Source: Proteromonas lacertae (Eukaryota). Taken from it: a stretch of 61,851 nt of DNA. Below the pieces are notes generated by a model. The model did no database searches and was not told the origin of the DNA. It saw nothing but the letters and a program-made list of their open reading frames with translations. The stretch covers positions 1 through 61,851 of the forward strand of contig NGBS01000038.1 in assembly GCA_002245135.1 (NCBI GenBank), given 5' to 3'. Positions 1,842 through 56,578 of the stretch are shown piece after piece; position 1 is the first letter of the stretch; every line of letters starts with the position of its first letter. A program made the position numbers and the translations under genes.

Positions 1842-2044
1842 TAAATGGGACCCTGGGACATTGTCACAGAGTTCTAACGAGTGTTCTAGGAGTCCGTCCC
1901 CTTCTAGATTCAGAGTTGACCTTTACGGGAGCTTCATCGATTGCATCGATGAAGATCCCGTAAAAGTCAACTCTGAATCTAGAAAGGGACGGACCCCTAG
2001 AAAACTCGTTAGGACTCTGTGACAATGTCCCAGGGTCCCATTTA
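1842..2044. repeat. 203-nt imperfect palindrome (100-bp stem, 3-nt loop)
   Basis: 1842-1941 is the reverse complement of 1945-2044 with 6 mismatches (1873, 1883, 1891, 1901, 1921, 1931) and no indels; loop TGC. Confidence 0.97.
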
Positions 2045-2055
2045 TATACTATATA

Positions 2056-3654
2056 GAAATTGATGTGTAAATGATATATTGTGGTGAATATAAGTGTATA
2101 ATACTGAAGTATGGTGTTAATTTTATTTATATGGACAAAATAGATGAGGAAAGAGACAGATTTCAAATCCTTTTCAGAGTGGAACAACCTGATGGTGTTA
2201 TAAAGATGTAGAAAATAGTATAAATTTAAAAATGATGTGATTGAGCATAATTGTGATGATTTGTATAAATTGTGAATTTGTGTAAGATAAAATGAGTTTA
2301 AAGAAATAAAGATGTGATATTTGATTAATTTGAATGTTATTATTCCGATTATTTATATGATGATGTAAGATAAGTGAATATAGAAAAAGTGATTAACAAT
2401 AGTCTTGATTTGAAAGTTTCAAATATCTTAATATCTAAGAAGATGTAGTAGATTATTTGAGGATGATATTATCTCTAGATTTGTATATATTGAAAAACAA
2501 AAGTTATTATTTGATGAATTATTATTGTGATATTTTTATGTGAAATAGAAGTGTGATAATTTTGTATTTAAATGAAATACTCAATTGAAAGATTAATAGA
2601 AATGGTTATTGTTAATATTATAATATGATTTTATGTTTTATGATGATGGTTAAAAAGGAGGAGAAAGAAGAATAGAATGAAAGAAGTAGTTGATATAAAT
2701 AATCCTTACAGAATTGCCATTGAAATTAGTTTGAATAATATTTAATATAAGTTATGTAAGTGATTAATATATATATGGAAATTTGATTATGATTGGAATA
2801 TTTTATATTTATAATAGAGAATGATGAGAGAAAAGTTTTATATTTTATTTTATATAATTAATATTTTATGTGTGTTGTATATTTGTATAGAAACAATTAA
2901 TCTTTCATTATTCTTCTATTACAACATTTTTACATCTTACACACAAGAAAACAATACTAACAAATATACAATGAAGGTTTAATAGAGTTTTATTTAATTA
3001 ATTGTTTAAAATGTAAATATATATATATTCTAACTATTTTTTCTTTCTCCTCCTTTTTAACCATCATCATAAAACATAAAATCATATTATAATATTAACA
3101 ATAACCATTTCTATTAATCTTTCAATTGAGTATTTCATTTAAATACAAAATTATCACACTTCTATTTCACATAAAAATATCACAATAATAATTCATCAAA
3201 TAATAACTTTTGTTTTTCAATATATACAAATCTAGAGATAATATCATCCTCAAATAATCTACTACATCTTCTTAGATATTAAGATATTTGAAACTTTCAA
3301 ATCAAGACTATTGTTAATCACTTTTTCTATATTCACTTATCTTACATCATCATATAAATAATCGGAATAATAACATTCAAATTAATCAAATATCACATCT
3401 TTATTTCTTTAAACTCATTTTATCTTACACAAATTCACAATTTATACAAATCATCACAATTATGCTCAATCACATCATTTTTAAATTTATACTATTTTCT
3501 ACATCTTTATAACACCATCAGGTTGTTCCACTCTGAAAAGGATTTGAAATCTGTCTCTTTCCTCATCTATTTTGTCCATATAAATAAAATTAACACCATA
3601 CTTCAGTATTATACACTTATATTCACCACAATATATCATTTACACATCAATTTC
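2056..3654. repeat. Long inverted duplication: arms 2056-2669 and 3041-3654 (614 bp), 371-bp spacer
   Basis: GAAATTGATGTGTAAATG...GGAGGAGAAAGAA is reverse-complemented at 3041-3654. No differences seen by eye. AT-rich and non-coding. Confidence 0.95.
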
Positions 3655-3872
3655 ACAAAAATACTTTTATATTTATAAATATTTAGCCGTTTCTTTCATC
3701 ATTTTTCATTTTTTCTCTTTAAATCATCATTAAGCATAGATAATAATATAATAACATGAATTGATATATAGTATATTTTCTTTTAATATAACATTATTAG
3801 AATGACATTAATTGTTTATAAGAAAATATAAAAGAGAGAGTGATATATAAGAAAAAGATTGAAATAATAATC

Positions 3873-3990
3873 AGAATCGTTCATATCTACAATAAAGCAC
3901 CGCATCCCATCAGAACTGCGAAGTTAAGATTGTACGAGCTATGATAGTAGTACAGTGGGGGACTCTGTGCGAAGTCATAGTAACGATTCT
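3873..3990 (+). rRNA. 5S rRNA (divergent, single copy)
   Basis: Closing stem AGAATCGTT/AACGATTCT, CATA after stem I, conserved AAAGCACC-CATCCCATCAGAACT-CGAAGTTAAG and TAGTA...TGGGGGAC...GAAGTC. Length about 118 nt, T-run directly downstream, TATATAA about 25 nt upstream. Confidence 0.92.
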
Positions 3991-3994
3991 TTTT
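3990..3994 (+). terminator. RNA Pol III oligo-T terminator of the 5S gene
   Basis: TTTTT immediately after the 5S 3' stem, followed by further T-runs. Confidence 0.75.
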
Positions 3995-4400
3995 ATTCTT
4001 TTCGCTTTTTTCTTTTTTCTTTCTTTTTATTATGATGTAGAACAGGTATAGAAACAATAAAATAACACTAATAAATAGAATCAAACTCAATCGAAAATTA
4101 AATTGCATAGATACATTTAAAGAAGGTTAATATCAATTAACATTTTTGAACAAGTAACTCGTCTAAATCCAATAAATCCCATTATTACTACATTACGCAG
4201 GCTATTTGATATTAGATTCTTAATGAAGAATTGCTTATTAGTATTGTATTTAAATAGAGAAAATAGATATGAAGAAGAGAATAATGACGATATAAAAGAA
4301 TATTATTCTAAGTTTTATAGTTTGAGATAGTATATTTGGTATAAAAATATTCTAATAACAAAACGAGTTAATAATAATAATAATAAAAATTCAATAGAAT

Positions 4401-7400
4401 CTAGAATAGAGATCCTATTGTTGTTGAAGCTACTGTTGATAATAGAATCATTGATGGTTCTTGAATTATTATATCAATTATCATCGAAATTGTTGAACTC
4501 AATATCCACTCTCTTGATTGATCACCACTGAATTTTACTCCATATAATAAATTAATATAAACCATTATTAGAATATATAAAAACACAAATGAATTTGCTA
4601 GAATAATTAATCCAGCTCTTATTCTTCTTTGCCTTTTCCAGTGTAAATATTCAATCTTTCTTTTATAATATACTTTTGCCACTCTTTGTTTCAATATACA
4701 CTTTATCTTATCAACGGATTCTTTTGATATTGAATCATCTTTGTATTTCTTTGTTAATTCTTCAAATTCTAAATCAACTTCGATAACATTAAAATCCATG
4801 AATGAAAATCTAACTAAACAAACTAATTTCAAAAGCAACAATACTAAACTAATAACAAAATATATCATCCATAATGGACAATATTCTTTGAATTTATCTA
4901 CTAATAATGATTGACAACCTATATGGTTATCACCTAAAGCCATTATCTTTGGAGCTGTACAATCTGTTGTATTATAATCATCGATTCCTTTATAACCACA
5001 ACATTCTAAACTACTTTCTATATATTCATTTAAATCTTTCATTACTCCTCCATTATAACAACTCTTCCAGATTGAATAAACTGTTGCAGAATCATTCATA
5101 TAAAGAATATATAAGACTAATAAAGCAACAAAGAATAACAATATTATTATATTCACTATTATCAGAATGAATAAGAATTTTCGTTTTCTTTCATTTGTTA
5201 TTATTATACTTGAGATTGTTTCAGCTATGAATATCACATATATACAGAATAAAGCGATTATTATATATCCAGGTGGTAAAATTATTATAAATGATATGAA
5301 GAAACATCCACTTATTCCATCAAATATTAAATCTAATAATGCTGAATATAATCGACTTCTTCTCTTTTTTATTGTTTTCATTGATCTTTTCAATTTATTA
5401 AAAATTACTTTCAATGAAGAAACTGCTTTTCTTGCTGATTTTTTTGAACTATAACCATTCGCATATTTATATACATATGGAATTAATAAAGAAGCAGGTA
5501 ACATAGACAAACATGAGATTATTGAAGTCATTGCTAATTGAGAAATATTTTCGGCATCATTTCCAAAGAATAATGCACTCACTGCTGTTGATGTTAATAC
5601 TTGAGCTGTTAAACATAAAATTCTTTGACTTCGATTTATCACTATCAGATTTTCAGTTGGACCTAGTTGGGGAGATAACCAACTATGTTCTTCAATTAAT
5701 ACATAACAATATTTCTCTAATAATGATTTATGTTTCTTCTCTATTGTTATAATATCTGTTTCTTTTTCATCTAATCTTCCTGTCTTTCGATAATAATTAC
5801 TTTTTAAATCTTCTAATTCAGTTATTTCATTATAATCTTTGTATTTTGTATAAATCCAAGCAATTAAACATATCAGTACTACACTTCCCAAGATTATTGG
5901 AACTATCATATTATCTTTATTATAATTTACTAATAGTTTCGAATCCATGACTGGATTTACAAAATTCAATTTGGGAAATATTGATGATTTTCGAGTTGAG
6001 AAATCACTTAGATGAATTGAAGCACATAATACATATTTATTTCCTCTTTCGTCATCAATTATTCCCATCACTATTAATCCTTTTGAATTCAATTCACCAT
6101 CTACATAATAACGACATTCTACATGTTTCAAATCAGTATTATCATTCAATCTTTGAATGAAATATATTGGATTTTCGATACTTCTTTCTATCTCCACTTC
6201 TCCATCTTTATTCATTACTGTGATCGATGTGACGCCAGCTGTTCTATTATTTATAGATAAATCATCTTCATTTGGATTATCTAACCAATCAATTATTGAT
6301 ATTTCATTTGCTTCTTCTCCATTTCCTAATATATAATTTGGTAGTTTTATATTTTCTTCCATTTCATCAAAATCGATTGTTCCATCATATTTGATTGATT
6401 TTAAATTGAAAGAATTTGTTTTTACTTTTAATGGAAATATTGTTTTATCTTGATTCAAATGAATTTTACTTATATCATTTAATAATTCGGGTAATTCTTT
6501 TCCAATCATTGATGATGATGATGATGTTGTTGTTGATTGAAGATTTCTATAAGTTTCTTCTTTTCGATCTTTCCATTCATCTTTCAATAATAATGAAGAT
6601 GCTTTTATATAATTTGTTAAAGATTCATAAGATATATCTGATGAATAATTCTCTTTCAATGAATTGATTGTAGATTTGATTATTGAAATTGTTGCTGATT
6701 TATTCTCGATTGAAAATTGATCTGGTGGATTTATCACTGATAATAATATTGATGATTGTTGATCAATTGCATCATATGTCAATACATTCTTATTTGATGA
6801 TTCGATTAGATTTATCAATAAGATCTTATTCAGATTTAATCGAATTTCATATTCTTTATCACTATATTCACATTTTTCACCAGCATAACCTTCAAAACAT
6901 TTACATTTACTATGACAATTTGGTTCATATTCTTTACATTCTTCTCGACTTAAAATACAGTCTCCTTGATTACTACATTTGACTCCAACTATTGTTCTAT
7001 TTCTTGATAAATATTCTCCAGGACATAGTTTTCTTACTGATTCACAGATTATATAACATTCTTTTATATCTACACTTTCACCAATACATCCTAATCCATT
7101 TCCAGATGGTTTGGGATTTGTACAATTTCGACTTCTTTTTGAAATTCCATATTTTCTTCTTCCATCATATATTTCACATGATGAACTACAATTACTCCAA
7201 TCACTCCATTTACTCCAACCACCATCAACATCTTCACATTCAACTCCATCTTCACCAAAACAAGTTTCATATTCCATTTCCATATTACATTCTCTTCCTC
7301 CATTTTCTGGTTTGGGATTATTACATTCTCGCCATTTCGCTTTTAAACCTAATCCACATTGATGATCACATTCTCCATAACTATAGCTCAAACTCAAGCC

Positions 7401-10400
7401 ACCATCAATCGCTATTCGATTCTCACATAACTCACCAAAGAATCCTTCCAAACATTGACAATGACCATTTAAACATTCTGCACCATTTTCACATTCAATA
7501 TTTGAACATTCTTTCTCTTTCATTTGAGAAGATATTCCTTCAATGATTGAATATAAATAATCGTAATATTTCTCATTTCTCAATTCTTCTGTTATATTGT
7601 TCAATTCATCAGTTATATTTGCTAAATCATCTACTTGTAATGGAGGTGAATATATTTGTAATTCTTCACCATTCTTATCTAATGTTGTATTGGCTGTTTT
7701 TACATATTTATCTTTAACAAATACAATTGGAGTGAGAGTATAATTATATTGTTTAGATCCTAATGGTAGTGGTCCAAAATAGTAATTAGCTAATCCAAAC
7801 ACAGCTTGTAAATAATATGTTGAATTATCCACAATTATACCAAACCTATAAGTAAATGTTTCTGCTCTTTTCCATCCTATGGTTGATATTAATATATTTT
7901 CACCTAATTCATATTCAGTTGATGATGAATATAAATAACCATATAATGGACCTTCATTAATGGTAAATTGGTATGTTGATTCCACTGTAACATCATTACT
8001 ACTAGTAGCTATTAATTTGATAATATGAGTAATTTTTCTATATAATCCTTCACTGTTAACTAATATTTTACTATCATTTGTTCTACCTATAAATGGATTG
8101 ATTCTTTCATCATTTGAATATATCCACTGGTATTTCATATTATTATCATTAATTGAAGTTATACTAATTAATTTAAACATATCATCTGGATTGTACATTG
8201 TAGAATTTGTTTTGGGATTTTCAATTGACAGATAAAATGGTAATTCTATAACCTCTCTAATATAAGTGTTTGATAAATGAAGTGTAGCGCCATCTGAAAC
8301 ATTTACTTGTAACAGGTATTCTCCAATATCTAATTTGTCTGCTGGTATTTCAATTTTTGGACTAGTTACATCTGATATTAAATATCCACAATAATCATAC
8401 TTATTAAAAACACATCTCCATTTGAATTGATATTGTTGTACTGTATTTATATCAGATAAATCAATCGATATTCCTTCCGTTTTGTTTTGCCTTAAATAAT
8501 CATAGTAACCATCTGCTACCTGAGATTGAGATAGTTGAATTAATATTCAGATTTATAACTATATTCCACACCATTAATAGTAGAACTTAATGTGAGATTG
8601 TATTTACCACTTTCAATTGAGTTTTTATCAAAGAGTAATCTTGTTTCATCTACTGTTTTATATTTAGATATATCAACTTCATCACCATTTTCGTTTTTCA
8701 TTGACCAATTGTAGTTTATTTCTGGCTTGTCTATTGCTTTGTTACATTGATACAATGACACTCTTCCTCGAATATAAACACTTTGATCTGTATATATCAT
8801 TTGATTCTTGTCTCCTTCAATATTTACATTCATAGTAAAATCATAACCAACAGTAAAAGTGTCATCAATCATAAACGGATTAAAAGGATCTAATACATTT
8901 TCAATTTCTACTGTAATTGTATATTTTGATCCACTTTCTAATGAATTCTTTGGTATTACAATTATTGGATCGTTAAGTAATTTAACAATATCATTCAATG
9001 TTGCATTTGGAGATCTCCATTTATAAGTCAATGGTCTGCTTGATGTTATACTTCTACCTCCATCAATAATAAAATCTTTACATGGAGAAATTGATGATGG
9101 TATTACTATTTCAGGTGATAGTTCGGTGCTATCTGATAACGTAATATATACATCTCCTTCGCATCCATACATGTGATCCTTACTACTCTTCAGCACATTT
9201 GGAATAAAATTTAAATAATTTTCTGGATATAGTGTAATTGGATTTCTTAGTTTCTTTGTTATGATGTTTGGTGTATATAAATAGCACATTGACAACGGAC
9301 CAAATGTATTATCACTGAATATTTCATTACATTTTCTTCCATTTATATCAATTCCATCTTTTATATCTACATTAAATTCTATTACTACAGTATTCTCATC
9401 AAGAAACCAACCATAATTTGCTGCTGGTGGATCTGTTCTTGGTGAGATATCTAATGTTTGATTACATGAAATATCACTATCTAAATCTGGGAATATATAA
9501 CCTTCTTTAACTGTTACTTTGGGTGAATATGATAATTCTTCAGTTGTTGAATTATAATAAACATATAATGTTCTATCATCAATCCATTTGTATATCAATA
9601 TATCAATTACTGTTGATGAATCAAAAGAAATTAAATCAGTTTCATTCATTACAAATGATTTATTAACTTCAATGCCTTTCATATAACATTTTTTGTCAAA
9701 TTCTAATATTAATATATAATCTGAATCACTAATTCTGCATGAAAGTACTATTGGAGCAGCAATACCATTAAATATCGTTGAAATTGGAATTGGGTCAACC
9801 TTTATTTCACGGTAGTACTTATCTTCACTTTTCACTTCAAATGATAATTCAGATGTTATATTTCTATCAGTATCTTTTGGAGAAATTGTAAAAAAATTAT
9901 AACCCAATATTTCAATATGAGAAGGTGTAATAGTATAGTATTCTTCGTCATATATTGGAAAGACTACTACTGGATTTAATATTTCTGAATATTCATCATA
10001 AGAATAACTATTTAAATATAGAGTAAGAATAACTGGTTCATAATTAGTATTAATAAACTCAATTGTATCTGCTTCAGGGTATATATTGTATGTTATAACT
10101 GGGCATTTTAAATCAATTGAACCAGTAAAATCACTTCCTTTTTCGTAGAATATCTTGTTATAAAAGAAAGGTAAATCATTATTCGCGATAAATGAAACAT
10201 CAATCCTCTTATAATTTCTATTACCTAATGATGGATCTGATGGATCTGGCGGAGTGCAGTATGAATCTAATATAGGAATATTATTATCGCCATCACTGAT
10301 AATGGAAGAATCTGATGCTGTCATAAAACTATCAGTTACAGTTTTTCTACCTGTAAAAGAGTATATTTCTTTTACTGTAATGTTTACATCTTCTAATATT

Positions 10401-11430
10401 CTATTGTTTATGTTTATTTCATTCACTATATCTATGTAACTATTATCAACTGTTAAATCACCATTACATATGTAACTAAGTAACCCAAATTTACTATTAG
10501 GATTGAAGATATCATTCAAATAAAGTCTAATTGTATTAGTATCAACGTCTAATTTACCTTTTTCTTTACCAACTAATCCACCAAAATTGTTTATTTCTTC
10601 TAAGTGAACATCAACTACACAATCACCAAAAGTACTAATACTATTGTCTGCATTACCAACTAACATGCCAATATTATCTTCAGTACTAATTGATACTATG
10701 TTTATTTCTGTTTTTACTATTAAGAATAAAGAGTATATTTGAATATTTGCCAATGTTGATCCAAATAACAAACCAATTGAAGCTTTTTTACTATTTTTTA
10801 TAGTAATTGCATTTCCTTTAAAAGTCAACTCTTTATTATATAATGAACCAATTGAATTAGTTGACTGATAAATATAACCACATAATAATCCAAAACTGGT
10901 TATTTCTTTGTTATTCACTTCTATTTCATCAAATTCCATTTCTATATTACTTAGCGTAGTATCTTTCATTTCATTACATAATATACCACTTTTTTCATTA
11001 GATGTATCAATCATTAGCTTTCCAACAATTATAATTTCAACGTCATTAATCAAACAACCTTTCATAGATTTTATAATTCCATCTCCATTAATTGGCACAG
11101 TTGCATTAATTACAAATGTAATATAACCTATTGTCTTTCCCTCCAATGAACTAAATAGATTGATTGAATTAATTTCATCTGATATTATTGTTATTTTTGT
11201 TCCTGCATTTCCATACATTCCAGTACCATGAAAATAACTAGAAAAATCTTGAGAGTGAAGAGTATAATCTCGAACTAATTGAACACTACTTCCTGAAGTA
11301 GCTAATAAATTAGCAAATACTTCATTATCATCACACAAGCAGATATTTGAACATATTATTAAGTAAAAGATCAAACCTATTAGTATTAATATAATAATTC
11401 TATAATTATACAACTACCTATCTTTCTCAT
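4401..11430 (-). CDS. Giant polycystin-1 (PKD1)-like membrane protein: signal peptide, GLUG-like repeats, REJ, EGF, 2x TSP1, GAIN/GPS, TM region with tetraspanin insert
   Basis: ATG 11430 plus a 41-nt intron (11377-11417) gives signal peptide MRKIGLIFYLIICSNICLC. ORFs 8540-11413 and 4401-8198 join through one missing A near 8546 (frame open 8199-8545). Motifs: IDGGRS..LTYKW (REJ), CENGAECLNGHCQCLEGFFGELC (EGF), WSKWSDWSNCSSSC (TSP1), CASIHLSDFS (GPS), HSWLS..RSQRILC and YGVKF..WILSS..D..QEP (PKD1 TM). Confidence 0.85.
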
Positions 11431-11936
11431 CTTATTTGAAAGTAACAACTTGCAAAGCCTTAAGCCTATTGACATAAATACAGTGGATGAAGATTGTATG
11501 ACAGGAAGAAATGTTTGAAGCCATGTTGATGTAAAAACCTCAACCTTAAGCATAATAAATGCTAAAGTCCTAAAAATAATGTGCATAATATTTTCTAGGA
11601 TAGAGAAATATCTTGCTTTAATCTAGTCAAATAAAAATGTTAAAATGATATACTTCTGTTTTCCACACATATATATTTTCCTTTACTTCATCCTTGAATA
11701 AAATGGTCTGGAGCAGAGTTAAGAAATAATAGATTCCAGATTCAAGACCAATAACTGTTCTCTGAGGTAAATTAATGTGTTCTAACATTTTCCTTTTATA
11801 TAAATCTCAAATCAAAAAAATCTTCGAAGTGGAGTTTGAGAAATGAACAATAATTCAATAACGAAATTCAACGTCAATGACATGTAAATGACAGAAATGT
11901 ATTTTTTGAAATGAATTATGAGATGTTAATTACTTG

Positions 11937-13046
11937 ATGTTATTATTTTTACTTTCTATATTATCCTGGCTAGTATTTACCATTGTTGGAGTGATATACC
12001 TCGATGTTTTGAAGATAGTTTATGTAGAAGAAAAAGAGCAAGGAAAAAGTGAAACATGTAGTAACAGTAGTAGATATAAAATAAGAATGAATCCTCAGTA
12101 TTACAACCTCAGAACTGATGTTGATACAAAGAAAACAGCTGTTGTAGGTCTTTTAGCAATTTATAATACTTCAGTTGTTGAACCATTTTTTTATTCGTTA
12201 AGAAAAACCGGATACAAAGATGAAATAATCTGTTTCACTTTAGATAAGAATATAATGACATACTATAGGTTATTTCAAAAGTATGATGTAACTTATGTTT
12301 TATTTAAAAACAAATATCCATACTACATATCTAATAACAAAAACTATCCAATATCAAGCCAATTGTCAAGAAATATATCAAAAATTCCATTTGATAAGTA
12401 TTATTATGCTAATCTTCGTTTTTTTATGATATATAATTGGCTGTTAGTATATCATTCCATTTTTTCATACATTCTAACCAGTGATATAAGAGATACACTT
12501 TTTCAAAGAAATCCATTTGAATGGAACTACAACAGAGGAATATACTTGTCACATGAAACTCAACATTGCAGATATTCTGAATCTAAAGAATGCTGTAGAT
12601 GTAATTATGATTGGTTATATAATTTAAATCCACCTGAATATATACTAAATAATACATTTATAAACGCAGGTCAAATATTTGGCTCAAGTATAGAAATCAG
12701 AGATTTTCTGAAAGGTTTTACAGAAATAATGTATGAAATTCATTTAAAGAATAAAATAAGGAATGACACATGTGATCAAGGAATACTGAACTATTATGTT
12801 TACAATACAAGCGAATTTGATTATCCAGTGTATTTGTTTGAAGCAGAACATGGATTTGCTAGATCGATAGGTCTAGATTTGATTAGTAATAAATATGGTT
12901 TTGAACTGAATGATAATTTAACAATCGTAAATGAAGATGGAACAGTTCCAGTTATGGTTCATCAGTATGATATTGGATTAAAGTATGGGTCGGTTGTTAG
13001 AAGGATCAAGTTTAGACATTATTATGAGTATTATGTAGATATTTAG
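11937..13046 (+). CDS. Putative type II membrane glycosyltransferase (GT-A-like)
   Basis: N-terminal TM helix, RFF..Y, SDIRDTLFQRNPF (DxxD), INAGQIFGS, DQGILNY, HQYD; intronless. Confidence 0.7.
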   Translation: MLLFLLSILSWLVFTIVGVIYLDVLKIVYVEEKEQGKSETCSNSSRYKIRMNPQYYNLRTDVDTKKTAVVGLLAIYNTSVVEPFFYSLRKTGYKDEIICFTLDKNIMTYYRLFQKYDVTYVLFKNKYPYYISNNKNYPISSQLSRNISKIPFDKYYYANLRFFMIYNWLLVYHSIFSYILTSDIRDTLFQRNPFEWNYNRGIYLSHETQHCRYSESKECCRCNYDWLYNLNPPEYILNNTFINAGQIFGSSIEIRDFLKGFTEIMYEIHLKNKIRNDTCDQGILNYYVYNTSEFDYPVYLFEAEHGFARSIGLDLISNKYGFELNDNLTIVNEDGTVPVMVHQYDIGLKYGSVVRRIKFRHYYEYYVDI

Positions 13047-13129
13047 TTAAATATTAATGTATTGAGTTTGTTTTGTTTTTTTGTTTTGATGGATGCTATT
13101 TTTATCACTAAAACAAAATAAATTGAAAT

Positions 13130-13621
13130 TTATTTTTCGTGAGTTGCTGATAATATTTCTAAAGAACAATCATATCCAACTGATACATACGGATATAGAG
13201 GAGAAGGTATATCCCTATATAATAAAACAGGATATGAATAATTATGACTAATCCAAAACTCTCTTCTATTCATATCTACTATCATTTCATAAATTGAACC
13301 ATCTCCATGATTAAAATCTGGACAATTAACAAGAGCACCAAAATGAATAAAAGATCTATCCATTTGACAATGAGTTGCAAATGCCAAATAATCTTGAAAT
13401 AGTGTAAATGTATGCCCTTTAATAACATCAATTGCGTTTCCTTTATAGAATCTATACTTTATATGATAAATTCCATTTTCACATGTTATGTTTAAACCAT
13501 TAAATTTATCAGTCTTTCTTTTCATTTTTATTGTCTTTCTATCACTTGAAATATTACCAGTGTATTACATTTTAGTAAATCTCAAGTTGTTAAACATTTC
13601 TCTTTGAATTTGTTGATTCAT
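13130..13621 (-). pseudogene. SPRY/B30.2-like family member with in-frame stop
   Basis: DGSIYEMIVDMNRREFWI..PSPLYPYV. The frame extends upstream to ATG 13621 across a TAA at 13565-13567. Paralogous to 17410-18037. Confidence 0.55.
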
Positions 13622-17047: not shown

Positions 17048-17090
<43 letters not shown>

Positions 17091-17409: not shown

Positions 17410-18037
17410 ATGAGTTAATTAGATAATCAAGAGAATAAAATGAGAGAGCTAGAAGAGAAAATTTTACAATTGCAACAATCAAATGAAGATAAAGACAAAG
17501 CAACAAAAGAATTAAGAAAAATGTTAGCTTTAACAGATAGTAAGATAGAAATGGATTCTGTTAGATTTACAAATGGCAGCAGAGTTGTAAGAGAAGAATG
17601 CTTTTAAGACTTGAAAATGGAGAAAGGCATACATTATATCAAATATAAACTTATATTAATTAGTAGGAAAAAAGCACTCTTGCAGAGATATTCTCATATC
17701 CTTCTCAATAACATTAGGAATTTGTAAAAATAAAATAGATACTTACTATTCCTGTTGTTGTTATAATGAAGAATATGAAGAACGAAAAGATATTACAAAT
17801 ATATTTTCTATGTATTACATAGGAACAGTTGTTAATTCAAATCTAAATTTCATTAATCATGAAGATGGTTCAATTTATGAAGTGATTGTTGATATGAATA
17901 AAAGAGAATTTTGGATTAAAGATGAGGATTCATCTCCAGTTTTACTTATTAAAAATTTGCCTTCTCCATTATATCCATTTGCAAAAGCACGATATGATGC
18001 TTTATTGGAATTGTTATCTGTTATTCATGAAGATTAA
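17410..18037 (+). pseudogene. Coiled-coil + SPRY-like pseudogene
   Basis: C-terminus HEDGSIYEVIVDMNKREFWI..PSPLYPF matches 13130-13525. The upstream part has two in-frame TAA and a frameshift. Confidence 0.65.
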
Positions 18038-18155
18038 ATATCTAAACATCTATATATGCTTTTTAATATTGCTTAAAGAATTATATTTAACACTAAATTA
18101 ATCATAAAAAATAACCAATCAAAAATCATAATATATCAACACGAATTACTATTAA

Positions 18156-45208: not shown

Positions 45209-45855
45209 AAAATGCCATTATTACTACACTAGATGTCAAAATTATTTCAGTAATTCACGATAGAGAAGCAGAAGTTATTTCAGTAATTAGCAAACAATAA
45301 TGCAAAATAAGATTGTGTTTTTAGAAAGCGTTGTAATTAAACAAAAGGAAACTACAAAGAATCATGTAAAATTATTATAATATCCGACTATTACAATAAG
45401 TATTGCAAACTTAATAAATTCACTCCTTCACATCATAATCACTTAGAGTTTATTCATCAGTCTACTTCTTCGATGTTAATATAAGAATTAAGTGGAAATA
45501 GTGGAGTATTAGAGGGGAAAAATGAAAAAGAGAAATAAGTGAAATAAATTATTCTTCTTCATTAATATATAAAAATACAATTATAAATATAGTCTTATTA
45601 ATACTTTCAATATCAATAACAATAATCATGGTGGTTATTATAGTTTATTTGATAATAATTAATAATCACCCATCCAATAATAGAATATTCTTTCCTTCAT
45701 CAAATAATATAGCATTCACCCTTTTATTTTATTTGTGGGTGTTATTCCTTTTTTATCCATCATCTGTTTGTTTGAAAATAAAAAAATAACGAATTTCAAA
45801 CTTTAGTAAAAATATATCCGTTTCAGGTGGTTTTCAGTTTTTTGAAATTAAAAAA

Positions 45856-48050
45856 ATGAGTGATGATGATTTCGTATATTTATAAGTTATTACATTTCAC
45901 AGGGTGATTTTGATGACGACTTCGATGATTTTGATGATGATGAAGCCAAAGAAATAGAAAAGAAGATCAAAAGTCCTCCCAAGCCTCCTGTTCAACCCAA
46001 AGACTCTCAGATTGCATTTATGAAAAGAAACAATGTTCATAGTATTTTTAATTACTCTTATAAAATAGATACTTTGGATCAATACTCAAGTAAAACATCT
46101 GGACCACTTATTAAACCAAAAATATTATATACACCCAAGACAGATCCTAGAGCTGAAAGAGTTAACGTATATTAACACAATCTTATAATATCTATAGGAT
46201 TTAAAGAAATTAGTAAAATTTGAAGAAGTATCTTATGACATATTCACATTGATGCATTCTGAGAAGTTAGATACAGTAACAAGTAAAATTCGAGGTGGAT
46301 TCTTTACAAACAGTCAAAGTCAAACAAATGAGAATATAAGCAATGCAGATTGTAATACAGACAAAATATCAACAGAAGCTAAAGGAATTCAAGTTCCAAA
46401 TGATTTATGTGAAACTAAAATCATCAGTAAAGAAGATTTTAGCAAATATGATGATAATCAAAATCAAAAACTTGTAAAATCACTGGAAGTATTTATTTAT
46501 TTTATAATATATTATAATTTTGAATAGAGTTTATATGGTATTGTTAAGAGCCAGACTTTATTAAACAAGAAAAGTGGAACAACCTTTTTTGTTGATTCAT
46601 TTTTACAGATGTGGATAAGTCAACTAAGTACTAGACAATTAATAGATATAAAAAGCTCAATTTATAATCCATCAGTATTCTGTAGTTTACACTCCAAAAG
46701 TAAAACAAATAAAAGTAGTTCAAGTAAAGGTGAAAGTAAATCAAATGAAAGTAAAAGTGTCGATGTAAATTGTGCATTTCCTGAATATTCAGTTGCTTGT
46801 ATATGGAAATTTCTAGATTCTAAAACTCCAGTAACGTATATATATATATATTATAATAATTCATTTTATTAATTTTTTAATAGTTTATGTCGTTGTCCAA
46901 ATGATGCAAGTTGTTTATATTTCGAGAATCGAATAATCATAATTGGGACAAAAGAAGGAACTTTAGAACTATTTGATCTCCATGAAGAAGATGGATTACA
47001 TTCAAGTAATGATTTTGAGTATAAATATGATAACAATAAAAGTGGAACTCATAAAGTTTACAAGCGAAATACCAATTACAATATTTTATCATTATATGCT
47101 CGAGATCCTTCTTTCACAAGTGATAATATGCAACAGAATTTAGAAGAAATCGTAAGTATTTGTCATATTCCTGTTGATAAAAGTAATGTAGGAAGTGATG
47201 AGATAGGAAGTAGCGAAGATAATTTATTATTTAAATTAGCAATACTTGATATTAGTGGTAATATAGGAATATTTAAAGCAATTAAAACACCAGTTGATAT
47301 GTATAATATAATAATAATATATTAAAATAGACGAAGTTCAACTGGTTTAAGATATGGTTCAACAATTCGATTAAGTGCTTTAAATATAATAATGAATAAC
47401 AGTAATGTAGGAATATCAAAATATATGTGTACAAATGAAGAATTTGATAATCGATTATACTGCTGTATGGGAGAATTAGGTTCAATAATAAAGAAGAATC
47501 TAAACTTATTAAGTGATAGTGGGAAAAGTTGTGTATTTAATCCACCTTATGATAGTCTAAGTGAAGGTGAATATATTTCATTTAATCCAAATAATAAACA
47601 TTTAGTATTAGTTGGATGGAGTTGTGGATGGGTTTGTTTATATAATATACACGATAATAATCCACTTAATACTTGGGATATTTGCTCATTTAATAATGGT
47701 AAAACGATGAAGAAGAGTAAAAATATTTCAATAAAGAAAATTTGTTGGTGTCATAGTAATGAAAATGTGTTTTTTGTATTAGATAATGTTGGTAAAATTT
47801 TAATATTTGATTTGAGTTATTCTCAATTAGTATGATATATATAAATATATATATAAATGAATAGAAACCAAAATATATTCATGAAGAGAATAGTAATCAT
47901 ATATGTGCCATGGATGTAAGTCGATTTGTATCTTCAAGTTACAGTGCTATGTTATTTACTGGATTTGATAATGGTGAAATTACTGTTTATGTTTTAAAGT
48001 ATGATTTATAGATGTATTTATTATTATTGTATAGTAAAGAATTATGTTAA
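45856..48050 (+). CDS. WDR60: Dynein-2 intermediate chain WDR60-like WD40 protein
   Basis: Acidic N-terminus (DDDFDDFDDDE), QTNENISNADCNTDKISTEAKGIQVP, IIGTKEGTLELFDLHE, RDPSFTSD and WD40 repeats; many mini-introns. Confidence 0.72.
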
Positions 48051-48488
48051 TTAAAAGTAATTAATATTTCTTTCTCATTCTTATTGTGTTTTTCATTAAT
48101 CCAAAACCTAATTTATAGAAAGGAAATTACACTAGCCTTTTTCAGCATAACTGTTTTTTTTCTTTATTTATGAATTAAACACCTTGTACAGCATTTATAA
48201 CTAACCTAATTAACATATTAAAGCAGATGGTTATAGAAAATGATTTCGCCAGGAACGATTTTGTCTCATAAAATTTGATTAACGAAAACTAATCGAATAT
48301 AATTATTCTTCTAATATATGTATTACTTTTAAATGCTTACATAAAACATAAATTAAAATAATAACTAAACAACTAAAAATACTTTTGAATATTATAATTC
48401 ATCTTATCAACTATACGCTTTTCTTCGGTTTTCTTCTATTTTCTTCTATCATTAAATATTCTATTTGGTTTTTTATAATTATAGGTAA

Positions 48489-51400
48489 ATGGATGATCAA
48501 ATTTTAATTGAAATAATAAACTGTGAATCTGCTATTAAAACTGATAACACAGGAATAAAATATGTAGAAGAGCCTTTTTTTATTCAAAGACAGAGTTATT
48601 TAAATATTTACAACGAAATGATGAAATATATAGCAATAGAAAATGGAATCCAAAAGAATTTTGTTGTATATGGAAACTATGGTATAGGTAAAACGAACTT
48701 TTGTGCATTTTTATGCAAACAATTTAAATCTTCCAAATTCCAAGTTATATTTATACCCTCTTCAGGTTTATATCTTTGTAAAGGAGTAGAAGAAAACAAA
48801 TATAATCGTATTTCATACTTACCTCCACGAGATGTTAAAAATCCTTCTGAAAAATCTATAATCATCTGCAATAATATGCCAATTTCAGAAGATGAATACA
48901 GTGAGGATGATGTGGTTATATTAGTGAGTGATATAAACTTGAAAAAATATAAAGTAATGCGCAGCAAGAGAGCTCCAATTCAGTTCTGTTTATTGCCTTT
49001 TAATAAGAATGAAATTGATTTTTATAAGAAAGTAAGAAGAAGAGAAATTGAAAAATATGGAGGAATTCCTGGATTAGTTGTTGTGAATGTCGAGAAAAAA
49101 TTAATGAGTATAAAAAGATAGATATTTATAGTGGTATTCCTGCTGAATATAATGAATATGTATATATTTATGATGTTAAAAATGAGTATGAAATTCCTCA
49201 GAATTTGAAATTTATTTCAAAGTATATTGAAGATTTGGCATTAAAGAAAGTTATTATAGATGATAATAATTTCAATATATATTATTTTTTATTAACAAAG
49301 AAAATCGAAGGAGATAATGACAGAATAGGAGGAGAAGGAGGTTATTATTATGAACATTTGGTATTGTATTATAAAGGATCTAAATATAAAGAAAACACTA
49401 TTAATAACAAATTAGAATTAGACAAATTAAATGAAAAAGCTTTACCATTGTTGATTGATTGTTCATTTCAATCTAATTTTGAAAGTGTTGATGCAATAGA
49501 GATTAATGAAAAGTGTATAAATGGAATACAAGTAACAGTGTCTGACCATCATCCTATTAAAGAATCTATAGCTATTTTATTCAATGTGATCTTTCAAGAA
49601 ACATATGAAAAAAGAAGAGAAATCGTATTAGGAATGTTTGAGGAGAAAAGAGTAGATGAACTTGCTGAAACTCTTTATTATTTAGGAGTATATTAATTAT
49701 CTATAATATTTATATATATATATATATAGTATACACCATCTTCAATGATAGATAAAGCATTAAATGACAATAAGGATAAAGTAAATGAATATCAACAAAC
49801 CGAGTTGGAATTAAGATTTGGGTTAAAATCAACTACAATAATTCCTGATAAAGATATTAATAATTATGTGAAAAGTATTATTAAAACAGTAACAATAGAA
49901 AATATGAAGAAAATCTTTGATGAAGATGAATTAAAGAAAGATATTGGATTGGTAAATGATGAGTTAAAATTTATCTATCATAATTATAGTAAAGAAGAAT
50001 TAGAAGAATTAGAGAAGAATAATACAAAAAAGCAACAGCATAAAGCTAAAAAGAATGTAATATTATCCAAAGTATGTAAGAGTAATAAAGTTAAAGATAT
50101 AATTGAAAAGAAAGTAAATAAATTAGTTTATGATTCAAAGGATTATGTTTATGACTATTCTATAGAGAAAGAAATAAAGGGAAAAATAGAAAACGAAAGA
50201 CAACAAGGAAAAAAGATAACAATAGAAGATATGTGTAAAAAAAGAGTAGAAATAATGAAAGAAAATAAGGATGAGATTGTGAAGAAAATATATGATGAAA
50301 TTAATAGTATCGTAGAAAAGGTGAATTTCATTAAAACTTACCTTGATAGAGATTATAATCCCAGATTTGTAATTACAATGATAAATCATAGAGAAGATGT
50401 GAGAATGGATATAGAAGAAAGTTTTGACTTCAGTAAATATACTGACATATTAGGACCAAAAATGATGAAGTATATAAAACATATTTATCCATCATATGAT
50501 ACATTTGACAATGATAAAAAAGAGAGAATAATGAAAAACAAATTCGATAGAGTAGAAAAAACAAATGAAATTATATCATATATTGAATTAGATAGAAAAA
50601 GAGTAAATGATCCAGAGATTAATGTTGATTTGTTATATTATAAAGATGACAAAAAGAAAAAAATTGAATTTAATAAACAAGAGTCAGATATTATGAATAC
50701 TTTGATAAACGCATTAAGAAGTAATATTATAATGAAAAGGTTTTTAGATTCAAATTTTATATATTTAGATGAATCAAATATGTCATGTAGCTCATATAAA
50801 GAAGGATTGGATAAGTTAGATATGATTTTAAGTAATTATATATCTCCAACATCATTTGATACTGCAGATGGACAAAGAAGAAACTATTATGATTGTGAGG
50901 TAAATAATACAAAACCAATTCTAAATCCATTGCTATTAATTGAATTAATAAAAGAAGGAGGAGAAGAAAAAGTAAAGTTTACCAATAGAGATAAATTAGA
51001 TGCTATTAATTTTACATATGATCACTTTTATTCCTTATTATTAGAAGCAAAAGGTAAAGGTAATGAAAATGAAGTTTATATTATAGCAGAAATTTTAACT
51101 TGTCCATATTGTAATGAAATAACATCAATTCTAAGAGAATGTGAATATGTAAATGATTTTAACAACAAGAAAACATTCTATTGTGGTAAATGTAAAATGA
51201 ATGTATCATGTCAACCAAAATTAGATGCAGAAGGATATAACACACAATTGAAAATAAAGAAATGTGGTATAGATATATATTACAATAATGAGCTGAAAAA
51301 TAGATATGAATTTGGAGATCTTGATCCTTCTGCTATGGAAATTGAAACTAAAGAAGATAATTATCCTCCTCCTCCTCCTTCTTCTACTGATCCTGGATTG

Positions 51401-53161
51401 GGAGTTGATGAAAATTCAGGGGGGGGGAAATAAGAGTGAAATGAATTATTCAGAACATAAATCTAAGAGTGTTAAAATATCAGAAAGTGTTTCTCCTCTT
51501 CAGTTAATATCACCACCCTCTAGAAACAGTATATATATATATATATATATAATGAAATAGGTTTTGATTATGTGAAACGTATATTTGATATAGGTAAAAA
51601 ATCTCCCAGTTTTATATATAATGAAAGATTGATAGAAATTGATGAAAGTATAAAATTATTTCAATATCCAAGCCATAAAATATTGGTGAGAGATTATTAT
51701 CCACAATTTTGGAAAAGAATAGAATATAATATAATTTATAATTGTTTTTATCGGTATAGAAAAAATGAATTTGTTTTAAAGAAGTTATTTAAATATATAA
51801 ATGTAAATGTTGATCCTTCAATTAATGAAGATGATTTACATAAAATCGTTGAAAGAGAGAAAGAAAGATTAAAAAAACTAATCAAATGTAAACCTACTAA
51901 AAATGAAATTAATAGTTACTATTTACTGAGAGGTGAACCAGGATGTGGAAAATCCACATTTTTAGTTTATTTTATCTTAAAAGTTATTCAGTTGAAAGAA
52001 AAATTAGGTATTAATTTAGGTTTAACATATTACAAAAGTTCAAAGAAAGAAGATGGAAGTCCAGATTATCCTGTTATCTATAATTTGATTGGAAAATATT
52101 TAGAAGAAAATATAATGGATGAAGATATAATTATATGTGATTCATATGATATTCCTGAAAATATATTCAGATTAAAAGGTATAGTTGTAAATGTCAGTTC
52201 TCCAGATAATAAAAACTATAAAAATATAAAAGATTTTAAGGGTGGTAATAAAGTATATTTCTATTTGGATATTTGTAATGAAAAAGAGATAAAAATAAGG
52301 AAAGAAAATTGTTTACCTGAAGATTTAGGAAATGCAATTGATGATAATCTTATTTCTTTATACAATCGAGTACCAAGACATTTATATTTTGCAGCTATAT
52401 ATAAAGCATATTATAAAGATAGAAATTATTGGGATGAAATTTATACAAACTGTATTAAAACAACTGTGAATACTCTTGGTTATTTTAATTTTATAAAGAA
52501 ATATCTCTTTCCATGTGAAAGAGGTAAAGAATCAAATTTGGAAAATGATATTGAATTAAATGTTGATCGATTAGATTCACATTTATCACATTATATTGTA
52601 AAATACAAAATATTAGATTATGAATCAATTGATAAAGTTCAATTAGAATTTATCTCTAAAGAAGTATTTAAGTATGTTTATTTCTGTACAAGTCACAGAT
52701 GTAGTAAAAGAGAATTTGAAATTATGAAGGATTTTTTCAAGAATAAAATACAATCAGATAAAAATCATCCTCTATATAAACTATTATTCAATGAATTAGT
52801 GTGGTATTCAATTATGTATAATGCAAAATGGAAAAATAATGTGATTAAGTTTAATAATATTCAGATGAATATATTTAATAAATATTTTCAAAATACTACA
52901 ACATCAATAGGATGTGGAGAAGGTAATTATTATATTGGTCAATTTGATATTGATATAGATTATGATATATGTTATGTTATTAATAATGTTATTGTATTTC
53001 CATTTTATTATGATGTAGATAAAATAATGAAAAATGAAAAATTTAAACAATATTTAGAAGATTATTCAAAAGATATTCAATGTAGTTTATATCCTAAAAT
53101 ATTTACAATTGAAGATTTACATAAACTTGATAAGAATGTAGTTAATGATTTGCATAAATAA
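48489..53161 (+). CDS. Crinkler/RHS-type protein with tandem P-loop NTPase(+REase) units
   Basis: Walker A GNYGIGKT..YGGIPG, REase-like SNFESVDAI..GIQVTVSDHHPIK, Zn-ribbon CPYC..CGKC, second Walker A GEPGCGKST..VSSP..NRVPR. The ORFs join through two introns (about 49689-49729 and 51529-51560) and two homopolymer frameshifts (about 49115 and G9 at 51419-51427). Confidence 0.72.
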
Positions 53162-53331
53162 TGTTAAGATATATTAACCTATGATATGATAATTACTTAT
53201 ACAATTTAGTAATTAACCTTGATATGCACAAGGCTCAGTATAGGATCAACTTCGATAAGCAACTCTTTGTAGACTAGATGATTAACCCCATCAACAACAA
53301 TGAACTTAAGATTATAATACTTAGTAGAATG

Positions 53332-53919
53332 TTAGTAAGCTAGAGATCGAAGAACTACTTTATAAAGAGACTGTAACTCCTTCGACACGTAGAACTTCCT
53401 TACCTTGATTATCTTAATTAAACATTGTATGTTCCTTAGGTGGCGTTGCTTTAGCTTATTCATCTTGAAGATGCCTGAGGAGTTAGATCCACCACACAAG
53501 ACAAGGAGCCTTATCAGTTGATTCCGGAGCAAGTAGGTTAAGTCATCATCATAGGATCGTTTCATCAGTTCATCATACTCTGGGATGTCGATTGCACGTA
53601 CTGACGGTGGATTCTCTTGGAGCAGTTCCTTGATCTCATTAACTAGGTTATTCATGGAATCGTAGACATCTCCTTGATCAGCACTGTTGTAGTTCGTGAT
53701 GGAGTGTCGGAGATATCTTCTCTTCTTAAAGTCTCGGAGGTAGTGATTATCAATGACATGCTGATTGCCAGGACTTCTCTTGAAGTGATCACGGATCGCT
53801 GATAAGGCTTCAAAGAGTTCTTGTTGATGGAGGTGCTGTTGCTTAAAAGTCCCAAACATACTAGGAGAGATAGATAGACCGAAGAAGTTAAGGATTACAA
53901 CTGTAAGCACTTGTACCAC
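53332..53919 (-). CDS. Hypothetical protein (frame continues past TAA to the junction at 53219)
   Basis: 195-aa ORF; after TAA the frame reads HSTKYYNLKFIVVDGVNHLVYKELLIEVDPILSLVHIK. Confidence 0.5.
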   Translation of the reverse strand: MVQVLTVVILNFFGLSISPSMFGTFKQQHLHQQELFEALSAIRDHFKRSPGNQHVIDNHYLRDFKKRRYLRHSITNYNSADQGDVYDSMNNLVNEIKELLQENPPSVRAIDIPEYDELMKRSYDDDLTYLLRNQLIRLLVLCGGSNSSGIFKMNKLKQRHLRNIQCLIKIIKVRKFYVSKELQSLYKVVLRSLAY

Positions 53920-54641
53920 TCAGAAGGAGAAGGCTTTACCATCTTGATCTTACCGTGAGAATGATTAAAGGGGAACTCATCATCAGCTTCAACATCGTCA
54001 GCATCTTCCTCCGACACATAGTCTGGATCAACCTCAAGGATTGGAATCTCATCATCATCATCGGAGGAGGAGGACTCGTGTTCACGGCTCTTGGAAGTCA
54101 CCTTACGGTATTGATTATATAGTCTAGCATAGTAACCAACATCATCCTCTTCCTCCTCTTTGGAATCACCTTTACCTCGTCCAAGATAGTTAACTACTGC
54201 GGCCCATACTTGTGGACTCCTCATTATATCCTTGACATTCTCTCCAACTGGAAGCTTTCCCTTTATATAATCCACTGCCTGATGAAGATTTGATGGAGCT
54301 GACTTACCATCAGATTCGGAACTCCTTTTGAAGTCAGGAATCTCAACACCGGCTTTATCAGCATGCTCTCGTATCAATTGAAAGGATGGGTTGTCCTTCT
54401 CAGCGATGTTAGCAACATCCCATGATAGTTGACGTAGAATACTTCTGGTCTCCTCGGAAGCTTCCTTTGTTAAGCTCATCACCTCCTTATACTTATTAGC
54501 CAGATCGATGATTGTTTTGTCTAAACGAGAAGATGTTGACCTGGGAGTCTTAGTTGATCTCCTTGCTAGTTCAGCATTTCGGAGAAGTACTTTTATAAAT
54601 ACACCATCTATTATCAAATCAAAGAAATTATTCTCATCCAA
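53895..54641 (-). CDS. Hypothetical protein with acidic C-terminus
   Basis: 248-codon intronless ORF (TTG start in the track), overlapping the next ORF by 25 nt. Confidence 0.55.
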   Translation of the reverse strand: MDENNFFDLIIDGVFIKVLLRNAELARRSTKTPRSTSSRLDKTIIDLANKYKEVMSLTKEASEETRSILRQLSWDVANIAEKDNPSFQLIREHADKAGVEIPDFKRSSESDGKSAPSNLHQAVDYIKGKLPVGENVKDIMRSPQVWAAVVNYLGRGKGDSKEEEEDDVGYYARLYNQYRKVTSKSREHESSSSDDDDEIPILEVDPDYVSEEDADDVEADDEFPFNHSHGKIKMVKPSPSEWYKCLQL

Positions 54642-55591
54642 AATATAACAGACAAAATTTTTTGACTTTTGGAGGATGTTAAACTGGAATATATAACTCA
54701 GAATTCATTTCGAAATTAGAATCTTTATTATAAACTATTAATATGTTTTCTAAATAGTTCTTCTAATTTATAATAAACTTCTAAATAACTATTATTATTT
54801 TTATTTTCACTATTTTCACTTTTCTTTATTAAACCATTCAATCCAATATCTGGAATTAATACATATTCATCTACTTTAACATATTTTAATAATACTTCAT
54901 ATACATAACTTTTATTAGATATATATAACATTATTTCTTTCTTTTTATTAGATGAAGAAACAGTGTTAGATATATTGAATGGAGATTTTGATTTAGGAAG
55001 TGGAAATACAATGGAATTCCATTTTATACAAGTCAATAAAGGCAAATACTAAATCGAATATTTCTGTTATATTTTCCTTCAAAGATTGAGTTCCATGTAT
55101 AACAGTAAAACTGATATTACTGTGAAATAAAATTATCAGCTTAACAAATACAAAAACAACATTAAGTTAAGGTTTGAATCAGAAAGTGATAAAAACTTTA
55201 GATGGCACAGTTTGTGAGGGTTTTGAAAATGAAGTTAAATTGTGAGTTAAATATGAAAAAGTAGTAATACAGATAGGTAAAACAGTACAGTATTACAGCA
55301 GCAGATATAAGAAACAGTTCCAGGTGTTATTAAATTGGACAAAACAGGATATTACTTTGCCCTAACTGTAAAAAGTGGAACTAAAATTCCAACTATCCAA
55401 CTAATTAAAGAGAAAGGTATAAAAGTATTTATTGCTATAAATGAGAAATCAGCTATATTTATATTAAATTTAGAAACAATGCATGGTGATGGTAAGTTGT
55501 ATTGCTTATAATAATATTTATTATACAGTTTACTGGTTAATTACTAAATTGTATAAGTAATTATCATATCATAGGTTAATATATCTTAACA

Positions 55592-56578
55592 TTATTTATG
55601 CAAATCATTAACTACATTCTTATCAAGTTTATGTAAATCTTCAATTGTAAATATTTTAGGATATAAACTACATTGAATATCTTTTGAATAATCTTCTAAA
55701 TATTGTTTAAATTTTTCATTTTTCATTATTTTATCTACATCATAATAAAATGGAAATACAATAACATTATTAATAACATAACATATATCATAATCTATAT
55801 CAATATCAAATTGACCAATATAATAATTACCTTCTCCACATCCTATTGATGTTGTAGTATTTTGAAAATATTTATTAAATATATTCATCTGAATATTATT
55901 AAACTTAATCACATTATTTTTCCATTTTGCATTATACATAATTGAATACCACACTAATTCATTGAATAATAGTTTATATAGAGGATGATTTTTATCTGAT
56001 TGTATTTTATTCTTGAAAAAATCCTTCATAATTTCAAATTCTCTTTTACTACATCTGTGACTTGTACAGAAATAAACATACTTAAATACTTCTTTAGAGA
56101 TAAATTCTAATTGAACTTTATCAATTGATTCATAATCTAATATTTTGTATTTTACAATATAATGTGATAAATGTGAATCTAATCGATCAACATTTAATTC
56201 AATATCATTTTCCAAATTTGATTCTTTACCTCTTTCACATGGAAAGAGATATTTCTTTATAAAATTAAAATAACCAAGAGTATTCACAGTTGTTTTAATA
56301 CAGTTTGTATAAATTTCATCCCAATAATTTCTATCTTTATAATATGCTTTATATATAGCTGCAAAATATAAATGTCTTGGTACTCGATTGTATAAAGAAA
56401 TAAGATTATCATCAATTGCATTTCCTAAATCTTCAGGTAAACAATTTTCTTTCCTTATTTTTATCTCTTTTTCATTACAAATATATAATAATAGTAAATA
56501 AAGGTTCTGGCACACCGAGCCGTATGACTCGGGCTCCTGGCACACCAAACCAAATTTTTTAAAATATTCTAATATCAT
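55592..56578 (-). pseudogene. Chimeric partial copy of the CR/RHS gene
   Basis: An unrelated N-terminus of about 32 aa is fused in frame to the duplicated C-terminal part; Walker A is missing. Confidence 0.7.
56493..56551 (+). other. Putative element terminus: AGTAAATAAAGG followed by CTGGCACACC direct repeats around a small hairpin
   Basis: CTGGCACACC at 56507-56516 and 56537-56546 flanks GAGCC-N10-GGCTC. The start resembles the reverse complement of the 2050 end (AGTATATAAATGG). Confidence 0.55.

Follow-up and report, generated by a model that had tools for sequence, protein, structure and literature searches.

The window analysed here, a stretch of 61,851 nucleotides (nt) from contig NGBS01000038.1 of Proteromonas lacertae (positions 1 to 61,851 of the forward strand), holds two sites at which host DNA is accompanied by a perfect inverted copy of itself, with foreign DNA rich in guanine and cytosine (GC) at a boundary of the repeat. 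The foreign DNA at the left end of the contig (element 1) includes part of a gene for a family B DNA polymerase of the protein-primed kind (pPolB). The reading that we favour, with about even confidence, is that the two sites carry DNA of one GC-rich foreign element and that the perfect inverted copies of the flanks were made during the repair of chromosome breaks. The resulting scar is most likely a one-off outcome and not the product of a programmed integration. The robust association is that of foreign DNA with arm boundaries, not that of two similar termini. In the 61.9 kb, there are just two GC-rich islands of more than 1 kb, and their boundaries lie 12 nt (site 1) and 1 nt (site 2) from arm boundaries; with random placement, the probability that at least two of the three island boundaries would fall that near to arm boundaries is ~3.9e-5. 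An earlier note on this DNA had proposed that inverted rather than short direct duplications of the flank arise at the ends of an element. The association with foreign junctions does go beyond chance, but the foreign piece at site 2 is internal and lacks a terminus. No direct repeat was seen at the flanks of the arms or of the element.

The two inverted repeats are the only long, perfect ones in the window, and no others are comparable. Site 2 comprises the following features (ORF, open reading frame; GC3, GC fraction at third codon positions; r, correlation of trinucleotide (3-mer) profiles):

51524-53161, plus strand: last exon of an intact host gene encoding a P-loop protein, a 545-codon open frame.
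52269-53218, plus strand: original arm, made up of the gene's 3' 893 nt and 57 nt downstream.
53219-54590, minus strand: captured internal fragment of foreign DNA, 1372 nt at 42% GC, the change points being 53216 and 54590.
53332-53859 and 53895-54479, minus strand: two orphan ORFs in this fragment, GC3 0.40-0.49.
54591-55534, unstranded: host-like remainder of the spacer, 944 nt, GC 0.238, r = 0.97 to host, GC3 0.09-0.16.
55535-56484, minus strand: inverted copy of 52269-53218, a truncated gene copy, identical over 950 nt.
56485-56504, plus strand: "end 2", an 8-nt A/T stretch followed by AGTAAATAAAGG, a match to the motif described below.

The site-2 arms, 52269-53218 and 55535-56484, are identical over their 950 nt and are separated by 2316 nt. 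The 545-codon frame at 51524-53161 crosses position 52269 unbroken and with host codon usage (GC3 0.11). Because the frame is continuous at this point, the distal arm is the original, and the proximal arm is a truncated, inverted copy of it. (An attempt to prove the arm native by aligning the gene with its upstream P-loop neighbour gave too weak an alignment, and frame continuity was used instead.) The foreign fragment begins at the base directly after the original arm (53218/53219). Its 3-mer profile correlates with that of positions 1-2040 at r = 0.919, while host chunks reach at most 0.50 (n = 191). The fragment is an internal piece either of the element at 1-2044 or of one identical to it in composition. 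There was no nucleotide or translated similarity between 53219-54590 and 1-2060, and the fragment contains no terminus and no palindrome. The ORF at 53895-54479 had no homologue among candidates (0/102), and that at 53332-53859 had 0 matches in 1.84 billion protein representatives. No longer palindrome was found concealed in the site-2 spacer. In the host-like half of this spacer, a coding-looking frame (55311-55511) is followed by an intron-like GTAAGT...CAG (55512-55534) that ends 6 nt before the inverted arm; this half may represent part of a gene that was severed at the junction.

Site 1 and the part of element 1 next to it comprise the following:

1-471, plus strand: C-terminus of a DNA polymerase, protein-primed and of family B, with relatives 43-46% identical (E 8.5e-25 to 6.3e-19), GC3 0.55.
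624-1025 and 1173-1580 (range 624-1580), plus strand: a pair of small orphan ORFs belonging to the foreign element, GC3 0.49-0.51.
1842-2044, unstranded: imperfect terminal palindrome of 203 nt, with 100-nt arms, 94% complementary, and a 3-nt loop.
2045-2055, unstranded: A/T-rich 11 nt between palindrome and arm, the outer 6 nt of the motif plus ATATA.
2056-2669, unstranded: element-proximal arm, presumed new inverted copy, a perfect complement of 3041-3654.
2670-3040, unstranded: spacer, host-like, 17.8% GC, r = 0.96 with host DNA, 0.23 with the element.
3041-3654, unstranded: distal arm, which runs on into host DNA and a 5S ribosomal RNA (rRNA) gene.

The site-1 arms (2056-2672 and 3038-3654) extend over 617 nt with a single mismatch at 2670; by direct comparison, the perfect part is 614 nt (2056-2669 and 3041-3654). 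The arms are separated by 365-371 nt. At the inner edge, the 614 perfect nt are followed by one mismatch and then 2 further matching nt, and, without an unrearranged allele, any primer homology at the junction between spacer and copy would be absorbed into the arms. The spacer (2670-3040) has no second copy within the window, nor were other copies of the arms or spacers of either site found there. Neither site-1 arm is coding, and the original arm cannot be read from the site-1 sequence; by analogy with site 2, the proximal arm is presumed to be the new copy. In both cases, the new copy is placed on the outward side of the 54.4-kb segment lying between the sites; this segment therefore looks folded back at both ends.

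The window contains exactly two copies of a motif, AGTAWATAAA(N)GG, one at 2038-2050 on the minus strand (end 1) and one at 56493-56504 on the plus strand, and these copies lie 5 nt (site 1) and 8 nt (site 2) outside the outer ends of the arms. The earlier note thus described the structures correctly, with a 614-nt perfect arm 5 nt from end 1 and a 950-nt identical arm 8 nt from end 2, each followed by a spacer and the inverted arm, and it had recognized the distal arm of site 2, with its intact gene, as the original. The shared geometry that it saw is confirmed for the succession of arm, spacer and arm next to the motif, but the site-2 spacer holds the 1372 nt of foreign DNA, which had been missed, so that the geometries at the two sites are not simply identical.

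End 1 is a true boundary of foreign DNA. The GC content of 1-2044 is 42-43%, compared to 26% in host DNA, with the change point at 2039 and the end of the palindrome at 2044, and the GC3 of its small ORFs (0.49-0.51) compares with 0.11-0.20 in host genes. The palindrome folds, as DNA, with -109.7 kcal/mol (z-score -25.6), a value matched by 0 of 200 shuffles, and the motif straddles its end at 2044. The adjoining 2045-2055, which did not match the sequence past the source arm, could be a linker, the tip of the element or leftover host flank. A 17-nt tandem repeat, CCCCGTAGGCAAGTAGA, is present in 2.4 copies in a subterminal position (1776-1814), and a 63-nt imperfect palindrome (82.5%) lies at 1498-1560, within the ORF at 1173-1580.

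The part of the element inside the window amounts to 2 kb with one end, and the visible part of the polymerase to 156 codons. Two relatives of the latter carry PF03175 (hmmscan), and the ORF at 1-471 matched these with E values of 6e-20 and 6.3e-19. The closest relatives are located on contigs of 1.4-7.6 kb and of 5.2 kb (L001). Two more distant ones have an Endonuclease VII-like domain (PF02945) ahead of the polymerase (L001, 1417-5187, E 2.3e-8; P0004, E 2.2e-5); among the papers listed by a literature search, none pairs "endonuclease VII" with Polinton or protein-primed terms. Scanning of metagenomes for polymerase relatives yielded only two distant loci, of 30% identity, AT-rich and without terminal inverted repeats. 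Viral contigs contained no polymerase relatives, by single-sequence or alignment query, and gave 0 matches each to the exact 25-mer of the element end and the 27-mer of "end 2". When the small element ORFs and the region to the right of 56493 were searched against Pfam at E up to 1, nothing credible was found other than weak matches to kinase and rve. In the 2 kb visible, element 1 is closer in appearance to a linear plasmid than to a Polinton.

In the reading that we favour, the element would exist, or have existed, as a linear molecule, and the cell would treat its ends and fragments as broken DNA and end-join them to breaks in the host chromosome. In the same event, the 614 or 950 nt by the break would be copied, or re-ligated, in inverted orientation, leaving short A/T linkers as well as filler DNA, the latter at the return junction. 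The order at both sites would then be outer partner, A/T linker, inverted copy of the flank, filler and original flank, where the outer partner would be the element end at site 1 and the DNA from 56485 onward at site 2. For site 2, the likely position of the break is between 53218 and 56485, in the gene's 3' untranslated region. The copy might have been made by synthesis (by fold-back, or by run-off and switch) or by ligation of a sister fragment; both remain candidates. The likeness of the two "termini" would be partly chance in A/T-rich signal sequence.

As in a duplicated inversion, the inverted host copy adjoins foreign DNA (2044/2056 and 53218/53219) and the original is kept, while filler occupies the second (return) junction, made up of 371 host-like nt at site 1 and, at site 2, of 1372 foreign and 944 host-like nt. 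Since the site-2 copy stops where the foreign DNA starts, with no hidden palindrome, copying and capture were most likely a single event at one DNA end, at 53218. The site-2 fragment, internal, devoid of a terminus and situated inside the spacer, points to capture at a break, not to a terminus-specific reaction. There was no source-side microhomology at the junctions, which have A/T stretches, candidate linkers, of 5-11 nt (site 1) and 8 nt (site 2); this would resemble the products of end joining. The arms are 100% identical, and the element ORFs are open without being adapted to AT, which fits a single recent event at each site.

Several points weigh against this reading. The structures are known here from the assembled contig alone, and their presence in the organism is unproven. 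The tie between the site-2 fragment and element 1 is one of composition and would be a presumed kinship, and at site 1 either arm may be the original. The likeness of the outer flanks, described below, beats 99.3-99.96% of random windows under lenient scoring and, on this reading, would have to be either coincidence or a shared A/T-rich signal. Finally, two scars within 54 kb, with their new copies facing outward, represent more order than independent accidents predict.

A further explanation is an artefact of assembly or amplification, by which the inverted arms and foreign joins would come from chimeric molecules or reads; we regard this as a serious contender, though an improbable one. Possible sources are chimeras from strand-displacement amplification, which are typically inverted and local, fold-back long reads, and ligation chimeras with an abundant episome. 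Nearby inverted chimeras are typically the commonest product of phi29-type amplification, and an artefact would suit arms that are exactly identical, five or six odd junctions grouped in two small regions, and a contig that starts in the element's polymerase gene and ends in a decayed integrase, like contigs broken at repeats. However, each structure would need two to four consecutive chimeric junctions that beat the true path inside a 62-kb contig. Each unique spacer is joined to both arms, and a graph of the de Bruijn or overlap type can pass through such a layout only if the inverted repeat is a true one. Random chimeras would not be expected to share foreign DNA and similar outer flanks, as both structures do.

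A separate question is whether position 56493 is the terminus of a related element, as the earlier note held, and we consider this rather unlikely. What stands of that claim is that end 1 is a foreign boundary and that the motif is unique to the two positions, with 0.12 occurrences expected by chance and at least two in 1 of 100 shuffles. The outer flanks are also alike, both reading TGTsCCAG...TTTATwTACTAT toward the arm. The similarity is, however, modest: with strict scoring, it was reached by 2.7% of random windows (472/17660), and with lenient scorings by 0.04-0.7%. Position 56493 itself lies in host-like DNA. The sequence to its right has a 3-mer correlation of r = 0.99 to host and ORFs with a GC3 of 0.19-0.20, and no translated similarity to the foreign DNA. 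"End 2" has no significant fold, and no Rfam match was found in 56400-57800. Once the 3266-nt insert is removed, the AATAAA at "end 2" falls ~70 nt past the stop of the gene, a spacing comparable to that of other genes here. Taken as evidence for a 3'-end signal, this AATAAA is compatible, but the hexamer is common (2.4 per kb per strand), and we did not retain it as such. A fragment resembling a protein kinase lies ~380 nt to the right of "end 2" (56874-57341, minus strand; PF00069, E 3.9e-5, short of the curated cut-off); the residues of its catalytic loop are degenerate. Several small ORFs are also present in this region.

An unlikely alternative is a nuclear, protein-primed linear element that integrates in the manner of kalilo, its ends, marked by motif and palindrome, being joined to breaks and U-turn synthesis regularly inverting the host flank. 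The end motif of such an element could be AGTAWATAAA..GG..CTGG.ACA, and the U-turn synthesis could be carried out by its own polymerase or be aided by the Endonuclease VII-like domain. In a bolder variant of the same proposal, element 1, which runs off the contig, would cap a healed chromosome end.

Quite unlikely, in our view, is an element-driven reaction in which the termini are related and insertion or replication at them itself yields inverted target duplications. The proposed route would be fold-back or U-turn synthesis by the strand-displacing polymerase of the element, or protein-mediated capture of ends. The location of the motif, which is confined to positions 5 nt and 8 nt away from the outer ends of the arms, agrees with this, as does the flank similarity under lenient alignment; the motif, however, contains TATAAA/AATAAA, which are frequent here, and the flank similarity is ordinary under strict scoring. 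Element 1 ends in a palindrome capable of snapping back, and the PF02945 domain of the polymerase relatives could act on branched DNA, but only one end of one element is visible, and the foreign fragment at site 2 is internal and located at the inner, not the outer, boundary. The DNA to the right of 56493 is host-like in composition and codon use, contains the kinase-like remnant and has no protein similarity to the foreign DNA. In protein-primed replication, synthesis begins at the terminus and proceeds inward, and this alone does not copy the host flank. In fungi, integrated pPolB plasmids with inverted host repeats have been tied, tentatively, to racquet or panhandle replication intermediates, according to PMC1864894.

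That the inverted repeats came first, broke as fragile sequences at the base of the stem or the stem-loop junction and then captured foreign DNA is very unlikely: the foreign junctions are all at arm boundaries (outer at site 1, inner at site 2), as the known fragility of long inverted repeats, through cutting of hairpins or cruciforms, would predict, and the Endonuclease VII-like domain in the relatives' polymerases would suit junction cutting, but the proposal gives no origin for two perfect repeats, one of which copies the 3' end of a gene, it requires two independent rare events per site as opposed to one complex event, and spacers of 371 and at least 944 nt strongly disfavour extrusion of a hairpin or cruciform.

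The window belongs to the nuclear DNA of a eukaryote that is AT-rich (26% GC) and bears flagella. It is nuclear and not mitochondrial because it contains genes for flagellar proteins, which have introns, and a gene for 5S rRNA. Host ORFs reach 1265 codons under the standard code; a ciliate code was considered and dropped, since the standard code already yields ORFs of 846-1265 codons. Pfam matches in the window include a copper P-type ATPase (E 1.4e-51) and GAS8/DRC4 (E 5.9e-56), as well as Tub, RyR, polycystin domains and TSP1. The introns are short and start with GTATATAT. The 5S rRNA gene (3873-3991, plus strand, 92.7 bits) is located 219 nt past the distal arm of site 1. For Podospora mitochondria, PMC1864894 describes plasmid integration as biased toward ribosomal DNA regions; the vicinity of the 5S rRNA gene to site 1 may be a coincidence. 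Adjacent P-loop genes occupy 48489-53161 on the plus strand, the last being the one duplicated at site 2. The latter was classed as Crinkler/RHS-like by language-model features only, with very high confidence, and no sequence homologue was found for it among 5952 candidates. Elsewhere, 13125-13314 and 17853-18042 form a 190-nt inverted repeat, 75% complementary, around a 4.5-kb spacer, which may be an old inverted duplication or a pair of diverged paralogous exons. A decayed rve integrase, in which the contig ends, is spread over three frames at 60767-61851 on the minus strand, 4.3 kb from "end 2"; it is frameshifted, with weak PF00665/PF13683 matches and host-like composition, and is probably the remnant of an old transposon unrelated to the GC-rich element.

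If the structures are real, the window provides a sequence-resolved nuclear case of a poorly known pPolB element that leaves duplicated-inversion scars, and it connects foreign DNA of natural origin, in a eukaryote that is protist-grade or branches early, with the phenomenon seen with fungal mitochondrial plasmids and with transfer DNA (T-DNA). The truncated inverted copy of the Crinkler/RHS-like gene, 2.3 kb from the original, could yield double-stranded RNA. Under the kalilo-like alternative, every insertion would leave an inverted and not a direct target duplication, seeding rearrangements, and truncated inverted gene copies could give hairpin RNA. Should the structures be an artefact, they would be of use as a warning about this assembly. 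Two cases from a single contig are not yet enough to make an open question testable.

Among known systems, Polintons/Mavericks have 6-bp target duplications and 5'-AG termini. Element 1 shares with them the protein-primed polymerase, the motif starts with AG, and a decayed rve integrase is present at 60767-61851. In contrast to Polintons, no short direct target duplication is visible, and the 2 kb in view shows no integrase or capsid genes and no terminal inverted repeats; the contigs of the closest relatives, at 5-8 kb, are too small for a Polinton, and the integrase remnant is host-like and distant from "end 2".

Fold-back inverted duplications are closer in form. In humans, these have single-copy spacers of 766-70,466 bp, with 2-8 bp of inverted microhomology at 13 of 21 junctions and insertions at some, according to PMC3907307, and two yeast studies describe them following a double-strand break (PMC7467729, PMC11724301). 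As there, the copies lie in both orientations around a single-copy spacer (here 371 and 2316 nt), and the inverted copy connects, at its far end, to a different partner. The spacer in those cases is the native loop, however, whereas the site-2 spacer begins with foreign DNA of 42% GC at 53219, for which reason a fold-back inversion with a native loop was rejected at this site. There is also no clear microhomology here, and the arms are <1 kb and not kilobases to megabases long.

The invertron-type plasmids (pKALILO, pMARANHAR and pAL2-1) resemble element 1 in encoding a protein-primed family B polymerase. As described in PMC1864894, integrated pPolB linear plasmids in fungal mitochondria are flanked by long inverted host repeats; the inverted duplications of Podospora pAL2-1 arise de novo, with linkers and truncated copies and no need for a dedicated integrase, and its integration is best viewed as plasmid ends being mistaken for breaks. 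A further likeness, at site 2, is that the insert borders at each end on one host coordinate, in opposite orientations (between 52269-53218 and 55535-56484). The target here, however, is nuclear and not mitochondrial, the arms are short (614 and 950 nt) with the chromosome continuing past them, and the element at site 1 lies outside both arms, its far flank being beyond the window; with 2 kb of the element visible, terminal inverted repeats, terminal protein and RNA polymerase would be outside the view.

The arrangement is not without precedent: inverted host duplicates are known both from these plasmids and from T-DNA junctions (PMC1864894, PMC8348815). In Arabidopsis, a foreign end is followed by an inverted duplicate of the flank, and unrelated DNA is captured at the return junction; the duplicated inversions described in PMC8348815 measure 160 bp, 800 kb and, in a case with a 652-bp plastid fragment, 20 kb. 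T-DNA and the present sites have in common foreign DNA, here presumably linear, at a break, an adjoining inverted host duplicate and a retained original, and the T-DNA return junction likewise lacks T-DNA but contains filler, with short filler or microhomology at the T-DNA junctions. At site 2, unlike at T-DNA sites, the element DNA is itself the filler and the outer partner is host-like, and the structures at both sites, read from one assembled contig, do not imply a de novo origin. The foreign DNA here is a natural element with a protein-primed polymerase, in an AT-rich eukaryote. The kind of scar is thus already known, and the present sites are a new example of it, with a poorly known element.

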